From: Bdellovibrio sp.
GTDB taxonomy: Bacteria > Bdellovibrionota > Bdellovibrionia > Bdellovibrionales > Bdellovibrionaceae
Direction of reading: 5' to 3'
Length of the DNA stretch: 64,000 nucleotides
Assembly: GCA_036676395.1 (NCBI GenBank)
Contig: JAKFCY010000002.1
Span: 160,001-224,000, forward strand
Positions within the stretch are counted from its first letter, which is position 1, and every line of letters begins with the position of its first letter. The notes under the pieces are model-generated. The model saw only the letters and a list, made by a program, of their open reading frames with translations. It was not told where the DNA came from and did no database searches. This document shows positions 53,813 to 56,172 of this stretch, piece by piece. Both the position numbers and the translations under genes were made by a program.

Positions 53813-54549
53813 ATGAAACAATTAACTTTATTGATTATTATCATTTTGACCTCTTTTTTTACGAACACTTATGTATCCGCTAAAGAAAATAAAAAAGAAA
53901 AATTAAAATACAGATATGAAGGCAATGATAAAATACTAAAATATAACGGATTTATCTTTCGTGCTGATAAATCTGTTTCTGACTTAGTTATTTTACGGTC
54001 GCACGCAATCATCGATGCAATGCTCGCAAATGATGAATATATGCAAGACAGCTAACTGAAATGGATTTTCAGATTAATTTTACACCATCAGGTGGAAAAA
54101 TAACGGATGTCGATAACTATGCTGAATTCAAAGGTAAAAAAGTAAAGTTTAAGACTTTACCATCGGGCAGCGGGAATTTTGAAGATCAGGTTGCTGGCCT
54201 AGCTGAATTTCATCAACTGATCGTTCCTGAAGATGATCTAGGCGGGATAGGTAAAGGGCGGATCATGGTGCATGAGTTTGCGCATGCTATTCATTTTTAC
54301 ATGCCCCAAGATGAACAACGACAAATTAGTAAAGCTTTTGAAAACGCCCGACGTAAGAGGTTGTATGCACCGAATTTGTATATCAATGAGAATTCATTCG
54401 AGTATTGGGCCGAATCTACGACAGCTTGGTTTAATGTACAATGGAAGTCTCGTTCAGATGGGATTAATACGCGCAAAGCTCTAGAGGACCACGATCCAGA
54501 GATTTCAAAAATATTAAAAAAAATCTATGGTGATTCAAAGTTTCCGTAA
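53813..54549 (+). pseudogene. Frameshifted secreted zinc metalloprotease (HEXXH, anthrax-LF/Pro-Pro endopeptidase-like zincin)
   Basis: ORF1 has a signal peptide and stops at 54055. ORF2 (54061-) carries VHEFAH and EYWAE and has no RBS. Adding one base near 54050 joins the two frames. Confidence 0.7.
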
Positions 54550-54638
54550 GGGCGCCAAAAATGCAAAAAGCTGCAGGTGGATAACCTAACAGCTTTTTAG
54601 TGATACCAGACTTCCGAACTTACGGAAGGAGGTCCGAT

Positions 54639-54749
54639 ATGCGTAAACCCAATTATTTACGTTATCGTCGCCTTTTAAATGTTTCTAAAGAGATTTTAAG
54701 AATAATTATGATGATTCTAGTGATTGTCATAACGATTAAAAGTATTTAG
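54639..54749 (+). CDS. 36-aa basic/hydrophobic peptide, putative type I toxin
   Basis: AGGAGG 6 nt before ATG; MRKPNYLRYRRLLNVSKEILRIIMMILVIVITIKSI*. Confidence 0.7.
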   Translation: MRKPNYLRYRRLLNVSKEILRIIMMILVIVITIKSI

Positions 54750-54875
54750 CAATCTAGATTCTGTACGTTAATTGCTAGATTTTGATTTGTGATCAAGACC
54801 AAGGTCGGACTTAAAATCCCGGGAATTTGGTGAACATGGAATCGTTGTTAGGTCTATCCACACTCTTAAAAATAA

Positions 54876-54904
54876 AAAACCCACATTTTTTAGATGTGGG
54901 TTTT
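54876..54904. terminator. Bidirectional Rho-independent terminator (icd and the sORF transcript)
   Basis: AAAACCCACAT-N7-ATGTGGGTTTT. Confidence 0.85.
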
Positions 54905-54942
54905 GAAGTTGGAACGCTGCTCCCGAAAAAGGGACGGCCTAC

Positions 54943-56172
54943 CTATAGAGTCATAGCTTTTTTAAGATTAGAATCGATTTTATCTAAGAATGGCTCTGTG
55001 TTCATGTACTTATCAGTAGGAACTTTATCGCCGTAGATGCAAACCGCTAAATCTTTTGTCATGAAACCAGCTTCAACTGTTTCAACACATACTTTTTCTA
55101 AAGTTTGTGCGAATTTTGCTAAAGGTGGATTGTTATCAAGTTTAGCTCTGTGCTCAAGACCACGAGTCCAAGCAAAAATTGATGCGATTGGATTTGTAGA
55201 AGTTGGTTTGCCTTGTTGGTGCATACGGTAATGACGAGTCACTGTGCCGTGAGCGGCTTCTGATTCCATTGTTTTACCATCTGGAGTAATTAATACAGAA
55301 GTCATTAAACCTAGTGAACCAAAACCTTGTGCAACAGTATCAGATTGAACGTCGCCATCGTAGTTCTTACAAGCCCATACGAAGTTACCATTCCATTTAA
55401 GAGCTGAAGCAACCATATCATCGATTAAACGATGTTCATACGTGATACCAGCAGCATCAAATTGAGTTTTGAATTCAGTTTGGTAAATGTTTTCAAAGAT
55501 ATCTTTGAAACGACCATCGTATTTTTTAAGGATCGTGTTTTTTGTCGATAAGTATAAAGGCCATTTTTTAGTTAATGCTTGGTTAAAGCAAGAACGTGCA
55601 AAACCTGTGATTGACTCATCAGTGTTGTACATAGCCATTGCAATACCATCACCTTTGAAGTTGTAAACTTCGTGAGTAATTGTGTCGCCGCCACCTTCAG
55701 GCTGAAAAGTAATTGTTAATTTACCTTTACCTTTTGTTACGAAATCAGTTGCGCGGTATTGATCACCGAACGCATGACGACCGATACAAATTGGCGCTGT
55801 CCAGTTAGGAACTAAACGAGGCACATTAGCGCAAAGGATTGGTTCGCGAAACACTGTACCATCAAGGATGTTACGGATTGTTCCGTTAGGTGATTTCCAC
55901 ATTTGTTTTAATTTAAATTCAGTTACGCGTTGTTCATCAGGCGTGATTGTCGCGCACTTGATACCAACGTTGTACTTTTTGATCGCTTCAGCAGCGTCAA
56001 CAGTGACTTGATCGTTAGTTTGGTCACGGTATTCCATGCCTAAGTCATAATATTTAATGTCGATATCTAAGTAAGGTAGGATTAATTTATCTTTGATAAA
56101 TTTCCAGATGATTCTTGTCATTTCATCGCCATCTAGCTCAACCACTGGGTTAGCCACTTTGATCTTTTGCAT
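54943..56172 (-). CDS. icd: NADP-dependent isocitrate dehydrogenase (type II, eukaryote-like)
   Basis: [45 protein letters not shown]. Confidence 0.97.

Follow-up and report, generated by a model that had tools for sequence, protein, structure and literature searches.

The window analysed here is a stretch of 64,000 nt from a Bdellovibrio sp. genome, in which positions 54551-54861 form a conserved unit of ~305 nt. Homology between copies of this unit starts at ~54551-57 and stops sharply at 54861, and nothing outside the 305-nt block is conserved between copies. On the plus strand, the unit begins with a conserved GG-N10-TGC motif of sigma-54 -24/-12-like spacing (54551-54564; GG at 54551-52 and TGC at 54562-64), followed by a hairpin (54565-54598) with an A-run on one side and a T-run on the other; this hairpin is terminator-like on both strands and holds the predicted 5' end of the peptide mRNA (54576, 12 nt past C-12 according to the spacing of the motif) as well as the 5' arm of a long-distance 5'-3' helix (54577-54593). 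Then come an upstream anti-Shine-Dalgarno (anti-SD) element, GACUUCC (54609-54615), the Shine-Dalgarno (SD) sequence GGAGGU (54628-54633), a start-codon hairpin made of CGAUAUGCGUAAA with UUUACGUUAUCG (54635-54667), the ORF of a 36-aa peptide (54639-54749, stop codon included) and, within this ORF, a second anti-SD element, GCCUU (54670-54674). Further downstream are a hairpin past the stop codon (54744-54780) with the conserved loop CUGYACGUU (54761-54769), the conserved palindrome UUGAUUUGNNAUCAA (54783-54797), the most conserved element of the 3' UTR, GGACUUAAAAUCC (54807-54819), and the 3' arm of the long-distance helix (54844-54861), with which homology ends. An intrinsic terminator (54876-54904) lies outside the conserved unit and is common to the cassette and the convergent isocitrate dehydrogenase gene.

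A sequence-only reading had already named many of these elements, including the start-site hairpin and the terminator, and all of them were recovered at the places it gave when the sequence 54540-54910 was inspected. Neither the features nor the fold of 54558-54904 is a matter of chance: folded as RNA, this region reaches -103.9 kcal/mol, compared with a shuffle mean of -69.1 (z -7.14), and none of 100 shuffles was as good. When the whole minimum free energy (MFE) structure of the window copy was mapped on an alignment of 22 homologous units, some helices proved to be family-wide and others not. There is very little doubt that the locus is a real, conserved and structured small-protein cassette.

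The ATG ORF at 54639-54749 is present and encodes 36 aa, as had been claimed, and it appears in the ORF listing as part of a GTG-extended ORF (54600-54749). Its length is 36 codons in 19 of the 22 units. Among 19 gap-free ORFs, pN was lower than pS in all 171 pairs (means 0.246 and 0.535), and variation was lowest at the second codon position (0.104), followed by the first (0.257) and the third (0.294). Judged by these substitutions, the 36-aa ORF is under purifying selection, which together with the homologues bears out the earlier proposal of a conserved small membrane-peptide ORF. The window peptide has a basic N-terminal half (charge +6) and a C-terminal hydrophobic helix (best 15-residue hydropathy 3.07). 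The same layout runs through the family, with an N-terminal half of net charge +5 to +8 in 21/22 units, the motif Y-L-R-Y-R-R, and a C-terminal hydrophobic stretch whose best 15-residue hydropathy is 2.3-3.4. With 36 aa, the peptide is of the small (<60 aa), hydrophobic kind found in type I toxin-antitoxin systems.

A profile of 20 peptides searched against 1.84 billion representatives matched 56 clusters at E<=1e-3, seven of them at E<=1e-10. The members of 36 clusters are 33-42 aa long and those of the others 46-103 aa, and several of the longer clusters look like the same peptide behind an upstream-extended start; the sole name recorded among them is 'hypothetical protein'. In Pfam, no family was matched at E<=10 by five of six peptides, and the single match of the sixth was noise. 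NCBIfam and PADLOC returned nothing meaningful for the family peptides, and the best matches in the ESM Atlas were clusters without a name (0.83), while a DinQ-like cluster scored 0.75, which is chance level.

The strongest structural feature of the unit is the pairing of 54844-54861 with 54577-54593, which had been proposed from the sequence of the window copy. It forms 17 bp in the MFE structure, is found in 22/22 homologous units and covaries. The MFE structure of every unit contains a terminal helix of 14-24 bp between its first 25 and last 30 nt, and with the window MFE mapped on the alignment the terminal helices are 83-91% paired across the 22 units. RNAalifold, run on the same units, keeps the terminal helix, the anti-SD helix ACUUCC/GGAGGU, the ORF hairpin and a small GGGACUUAAAAUCCC hairpin, with compensatory changes in 11 of 24 consensus pairs. 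According to the pair count over the 22 units, 94.0% of cells are paired, compared with 27.9-53.5% when the partners are slid, and 11 pairs are changed on both sides, compared with 4.3 +/- 1.2 in shuffles, none of 500 of which reached 11. The duplex energy of cognate unit ends averages -25.6 kcal/mol and that of non-cognate ends -16.8 kcal/mol. In 9/22 units the unit's own 3' end ranks first of 22, including all units with divergent arms (L010, L011, L012, L030, and L003). The arm sequences differ outright among subfamilies, and complementarity is held within each unit. This pattern of covariation indicates that the RNA architecture of the cassette is under selection. A further pairing proposed earlier, 54820-54831 with 54604-54616, stands in part: the MFE structure contains the helices 54604-09/54827-32 and 54596-602/54835-41, but these are just 57-62% paired across the 22 units.

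The proposal that the SD is sequestered is supported in silico, with a mean probability of being unpaired of 0-0.55 in the 22 units and <=0.24 in 20 of them. This predicted burial agrees with type I toxin-antitoxin systems, whose primary transcripts are untranslatable owing to SD sequestration. Both proposed local pairings exist, i.e., CUUCCG (54611-16) with CGGAAG (54623-28), or alternatively GACUUCC (54609-15) with GGAGGUC (54628-34). The latter corresponds to the RNAalifold helix of columns 44-49 with 77-82 and is 96.3% paired across units without compensatory change, which is due to the invariance of the SD (GGAGG being nearly invariant). In the window MFE, the SD pairs instead with the ORF element 54670-74. 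The AUG region (54635-47) is engaged with 54656-67 in a hairpin of 12 bp (helices 6-7), which is 84-88% paired across the 22 units with few compensatory changes; the ORF hairpin is 84% paired. Taking all units together, the MFE partner of the SD is a 5' UTR or ORF segment, and a 3' UTR partner is seen in 1/22 units.

The 3' UTR elements form local structures as well. The hairpin past the stop codon (helices 13-14) is 65-78% paired, and the palindrome (helix 16) is 89% paired without compensatory change. The element 54807-54819 is complementary both to the SD/spacer and to 54690-54700 of the ORF; in addition, it folds on itself into a small hairpin (helix 11, 72% paired). A long-range contact of 54804-12 with the SD and start region 54630-38 had been suggested; the complementarity is there (9 bp, two of them G-U), but the pairing is absent from the MFE and has no support across the 22 units, and it was discarded. 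The earlier proposal that the full-length mRNA may be activated by 3' trimming found no support in silico either. When the 3' arm (end at 54843) or everything past 54800 was removed, the SD and AUG hairpins stayed in the MFE, so that the ribosome binding site is predicted to remain closed if the 3' end is trimmed and nothing else changes.

The motif at the start of the unit reads G(-25)G(-24)...A-run...T(-14)G(-13)C(-12)A(-11). In 22 units, the counts are 18/22 for G-25, 20/22 for G-24, 22/22 for T-14, 21/22 for G-13, 18/22 for C-12 and 22/22 for A-11, while positions -30 to -26 show no conservation; the GG is also found in 22/25 further modules. The GG and GC are spaced exactly as in the sigma-54 promoter consensus TGGCAC-N5-TTGC, and the genome of the window encodes rpoN. 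It also contains many canonical TGGCAC-N5-TTGCT sites. Fifteen of them match 11/12 positions; none of these 15 lies in an open frame, and 12 have an ORF start <=70 nt downstream. The sigma-54-type sites of this genome are often located upstream of small secreted or membrane proteins. In other respects the cassette departs from this promoter class: its -12 region is ATGCA, whereas the genome's own best sites have TTGCT; its -24 region reads (T/A)GG(C/T)NN, with C-23, A-22 and C-21 poorly kept; and, with homology ending at -25, it lacks a conserved activator site upstream. A sigma-70-like alternative would use AAAAAT as the -10 element and start ~6 nt further upstream, but its -35 element is absent from the conserved block. 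On balance we lean slightly towards 54551-54564 being a sigma-54 (-24/-12) promoter.

The start predicted from this motif (54576) coincides with the onset of complementarity to the 3' arm, and across the 22 units the offset between the two is 0 in 13 and 1-3 nt in five more. The hairpin 54565-54598 straddles this position and is present in 22/22 units, with a T-run following it on either strand. In 35 modules of several subfamilies, seven of its nine pairs show compensatory change and 83.9% of cells are paired; 79 cells are changed on both sides, compared with 32.8 +/- 4.6 in shuffles, and none of 500 shuffles reached 79. An extension of this hairpin into the -10 position was also considered and set aside as too weak, with just three compensatory sequences from ~2 lineages. 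Since the hairpin needs both of its arms, the RNA in which it forms would have to be antisense, or produced by read-through, or a sense transcript started further upstream. We infer that it may terminate transcription that is foreign or antisense, and that the transcript of the cassette itself, starting inside the hairpin, would escape.

The sequence-only reading had labelled the locus 'Copy 2'. No close copy of 54551-54861 was found within the 64-kb window; what the window does contain is a diverged paralogous unit at 44596-44942, and a close copy lies on another contig of the same genome (86% identity over 304 nt). The genome has five modules in total, and the units sit in different intergenic contexts. 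In the paralogue at 44596-44942 the layout is the same: besides the motif and the hairpin it has an SD, an ORF of 40 codons and, on the 3' side, an arm that pairs with its predicted 5' end, and its 316 nt fold to an MFE of -99.4 kcal/mol. Its start position is ATC, as it is in all four orthologues (77-97% identical). The ORF is open in three of these four orthologues, and none was reported by the script in L055; the ORF is therefore intact in 4/5 genomes of this ATC subfamily, the window's own included. Related members with ATG exist.

A DNA search of relatives gave matches in 13/61 genomes, with <=5 matches per genome, truncated pieces included; by group, these are found in 10/36 other genomes of the genus and 2/24 others of the order. 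A pattern scan of species-representative genomes yielded 22 loci, 15 of which are in Pseudobdellovibrio, Bdellovibrio or Bdellovibrionota records. The peptide ORF is present at 13 of these 15 loci, and at none of the seven pattern loci from other phyla. In a sample of the phylum, the peptide was detected in 30/401 genomes, all from a single order of Bdellovibrionota, where it occurs in 23/52 genomes of the window's family and in four sister families; the remaining families sampled from the phylum gave no hit (e.g., 0/100, 0/57, and 0/34). In a sister genome with flanks 96-99% identical to those of the window, the syntenic site holds a remnant that has lost its 5' UTR and distal 3' UTR, together with the greater part of the ORF, through two internal deletions.

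Any cognate RNA antitoxin would have to be encoded antisense inside the 305-nt block, because nothing outside it is conserved. Minus-strand promoter-like sites with a -10 element at ATG+60 to +77 are found in many, not all, of 42 modules. In the window, the candidate is ATGACA-17-AATTAT (54730-54702 on the minus strand), a weak promoter-like match, and an RNA started there would end at the hairpin 54598-54565. Such candidates are weak, since the DNA here codes for I, L and M and is AT-rich, and no antisense promoter is conserved in all subfamilies among the 42 modules, several of which, GC-richer ones included, are without a site. Minus-strand promoter candidates located in the 3' UTR did not pass inspection by eye, since their spacing varies from copy to copy. 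An antisense RNA starting within the ORF and ending at the hairpin would be the likely antitoxin. In Rfam, nothing in the whole window reached the gathering score, and matches at E<=10 in 54450-54950 were at chance level alone.

Among known systems, the closest resemblance is to aapA/IsoA of Helicobacter and Campylobacter. AapA peptides have a charged N-terminal part and a hydrophobic helix, a layout shared by the cassette peptide, and both systems occur as several chromosomal copies encoding a small peptide. The primary aapA transcript has been described as non-translatable, as closed by a 5'-3' long-distance interaction and as subject to 3' 'activation' trimming (PMC6733600), and a covarying long-distance helix of this kind is presented as a hallmark in the AapA papers (PMC6733600). 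The cassette likewise has a covarying 5'-3' interaction in its full-length mRNA. For AapA3, two successive metastable anti-SD hairpins were reported, one upstream and one in the ORF (PMC6733600), and the cassette combines 5'-3' closure with two serial local anti-SD hairpins at the same two places. A proposed need for 3' trimming is also common to both (PMC6733600). The two differ in several ways. In aapA, as described, a third anti-SD sequence is contained in the 3' partner of the long-distance helix, whereas the terminal helix of the cassette misses the SD in the MFE. The aapA genes are accompanied by the antisense RNA IsoA, whereas the cassette shows a candidate antisense promoter alone. The cassette belongs to another phylum, carries the -24/-12-like motif and has a hairpin straddling its predicted start. 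Searches of Pfam, NCBIfam and Rfam, made without an AapA or IsoA model, showed no sequence relation to aapA/IsoA.

The older model of the same design is the hok/Sok system (with mok), known from plasmid R1 and from the chromosomes of enterobacteria. The full-length hok mRNA is held inert by a 3' element that pairs with its 5' end and is activated by 3' processing, the peptide damages the membrane, and decayed copies occur on chromosomes. Unlike hok/Sok, the cassette peptides have no Hok_Gef match in Pfam and the window has no Sok match in Rfam; there is no conserved mok-like leader ORF, the upstream ORFs that some copies have being in different frames and with different starts (ATG or GTG), and the hydrophobic part of the 36-aa peptide is C-terminal. 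In the source used for AapA, hok is treated just in general terms (PMC6733600). According to the tests run, with aapA/IsoA compared by description, the cassette is not a member of any described family. The T1TAdb paper covers 24 type I families from genomes reported in the literature (PMC8594479), and its main text contains no mention of Bdellovibrio or Deltaproteobacteria (PMC8594479). Titles and abstract openings revealed no report on type I toxin-antitoxin or small-protein toxin loci in Bdellovibrio, and no literature on a type I toxin with a sigma54-dependent promoter was found. The transcriptome of B. bacteriovorus includes eight unexplained intergenic attack-phase sRNAs (PMC3627812).

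The most likely reading, which we consider somewhat more probable than not, is that the cassette belongs to a hitherto undescribed family of Bdellovibrio-type bacteria, self-contained, similar to type I toxin-antitoxin systems and working in the manner of hok and AapA. This reading is based on the fold, the copies, the coding selection, the covariation, the burial of the SD, the decay, the promoter motif and the parallel with AapA3. Points that speak against it are that no antitoxin RNA was found, that there is no match to a known toxin family, that the SD partner is local, that truncating the 3' end in silico frees neither SD nor AUG, and that the promoter motif departs from the genome's own best sigma-54-type sites. 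According to the proposed mechanism, transcription would start at ~54576 from the -24/-12 type (sigma-54-like) promoter at 54551-54564. With this start inside the hairpin, incoming and opposite-strand transcripts would be terminated, and the cassette's own transcript, lacking the 5' arm, would pass. During synthesis, the SD would be caught first by the upstream anti-SD (54609-15) and would then be taken by the ORF anti-SD (54670-74) together with the AUG hairpin (54635-67). In the finished RNA, the 5'-3' helix would lock the molecule in a stable state that is not translated. Processing at the 3' end, or some other event that opens the RNA, would be required before translation, and the peptide thus released may insert in the inner membrane and harm the cell.

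The main competing explanation, to which we assign a distinctly smaller yet appreciable probability, is a regulated small inner-membrane protein without an antitoxin. The peptide would then be harmless or conditionally useful, e.g., when the envelope is stressed or during a single stage of the predatory cycle, and it would be kept behind a double gate, consisting of an activator-dependent promoter and an mRNA stored in closed form, with the helix serving for stability and translational silence only. The lack of an antitoxin signal conserved in all units fits this idea, as do the -24/-12-like motif, which alone would give tight off-state control, and the small secreted or membrane proteins that often follow sigma-54-type sites in this genome. 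The subfamily with ATC in place of ATG points the same way, as an ORF kept intact behind such a start in 4/5 genomes suggests very low but real translation. However, the units are patchy and variable in copy number (10/36 genomes of the genus, <=5 matches per genome), and both truncated copies and a syntenic deletion remnant in a sister species are found. Patchy copies and decay are more in keeping with toxin cassettes that are selfish or dispensable than with a housekeeping regulator, and the combination of a triple anti-SD with a long-distance helix has, as described in PMC6733600, so far been a property of type I toxins.

Two further explanations would deny the peptide its role, and the selection acting on the ORF weighs against each of them. 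A miniature, MITE-like mobile element, with the arms as terminal inverted repeats and the ORF as a passenger or accident, would explain the multiple copies, the sharp borders of homology, the inverted complementary ends and the insertion in different intergenic contexts. Transposase-bound repeats should be constant, however, and here the opposite is seen, with arms that vary freely between subfamilies and yet remain complementary within each unit. Moreover, the partner of the unit's 3' arm is formed by the loop and the 3' side of the hairpin and not by the outermost bases of the unit, and the interior RNA helices are conserved too, so that we regard such an element as very improbable. Little credence can likewise be given to a non-coding structured RNA or cis-regulatory element with an untranslated ORF. 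Its appeal lies in the very strong and conserved secondary structure and in the burial of SD and AUG in every predicted form, but it is at odds with pN<pS in 171/171 pairs and the most conserved position being the second of the codon, with an ORF fixed at 36 codons in 19/22 units and with a strong GGAGG at the correct spacing; no Rfam family matches either.

A more far-reaching reading may also be put forward, although we think it rather unlikely: a toxin cassette without any RNA antitoxin, which would be kept safe by three nested locks within 305 nt. The enhancer-dependent sigma-54 promoter would be the first lock, the bidirectional terminator, bypassed by the cassette's own start and insulating it from outside transcription, the second, and the mRNA closing on itself the third. 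The peptide would be freed only if the action of a specific activator coincided with a step that opens the RNA, e.g., at a certain point of the predatory cycle or upon phage attack, and the AUC start kept by the sister subfamily in four genomes would amount to a fourth lock.

If the cassette is indeed a new type I-like family, it would be one confined to predatory bacteria, and the 'self-closing toxin mRNA' design would be known from a wider range of organisms. Sharing with known families the long-distance helix and the anti-SD hairpins in series, but no sequence, it would then represent a convergent RNA architecture. With its clean covariation and several paralogues per genome that differ in their arms, the family offers a good natural system for studying co-transcriptional folding. 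Should the promoter reading be true as well, a toxin-like gene would be linked to activator-dependent transcription, and a start site inside a terminator would act as an insulation device.

Two elements in the 3' UTR of the window copy are conserved, namely the loop CUGYACGUU of the hairpin that follows the stop codon (54761-54769) and the palindrome UUGAUUUGNNAUCAA (54783-54797), which is followed by GACCAAGG. Because this loop and palindrome are conserved at the sequence level rather than by covariation, they may serve as binding or processing sites. Among the 22 aligned homologous copies of the cassette, a run of at least four Ts starts no more than a few bases from where the 3' arm ends in 11 (L004, L005, L007-L009, L011, L012, L015, L018, L024, and L027), and in these copies the transcript may end directly at the long-distance helix that the arm would form with the mRNA 5' end. 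Unlike these 11 units, the window copy possesses a separate terminator, located 15 nt beyond its 3' arm.

The ORF just upstream of the window copy (54061-54549, forward strand) encodes a 162-aa product with an HEFAH motif. In Pfam it matches PF07737, a family of zinc-metalloprotease domains, at a sub-threshold level (E 1.4e-4, with a score of 22 bits where the cut-off is 27.4), and the product is probably a small HExxH metallopeptidase-like protein.

A diverged paralogous cassette is also present in the window at 44596-44942 on the forward strand, and is probably the one that the sequence-only reading had called Copy 1. As in the window copy, it carries the GG-N10-TGC motif (C-12, the last motif position, at 44613), followed by a hairpin (44619-44652), an SD sequence, a 40-codon ORF that starts at 44688, and a 3' arm that extends to 44940 and pairs with the predicted 5' terminus. 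At the start position, this ORF has ATC instead of ATG, both in the window's genome and in all four orthologues from other genomes, which are 77-97% identical. Three of these orthologues keep the ORF open; for the fourth (L055), no ORF was reported. The ATC may represent a near-cognate AUC start or, alternatively, an inactivation that all these loci have in common.

The window's genome possesses five modules of this superfamily in all, including three outside the window (C3:85524, forward strand; C2:2162516 and C3:191281-191587, reverse strand). In many genomes of the genus, the match to the 44.6 kb copy is limited to its first ~53 nt, comprising the motif and hairpin, suggesting that additional subfamilies encoding other peptides exist. 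Throughout the window's genome, many canonical TGGCAC-N5-TTGCT sites are located 25-70 nt upstream of ORFs whose products start like secreted proteins or lipoproteins, and this organism may have a large envelope or secretome regulon under the control of sigma-54.
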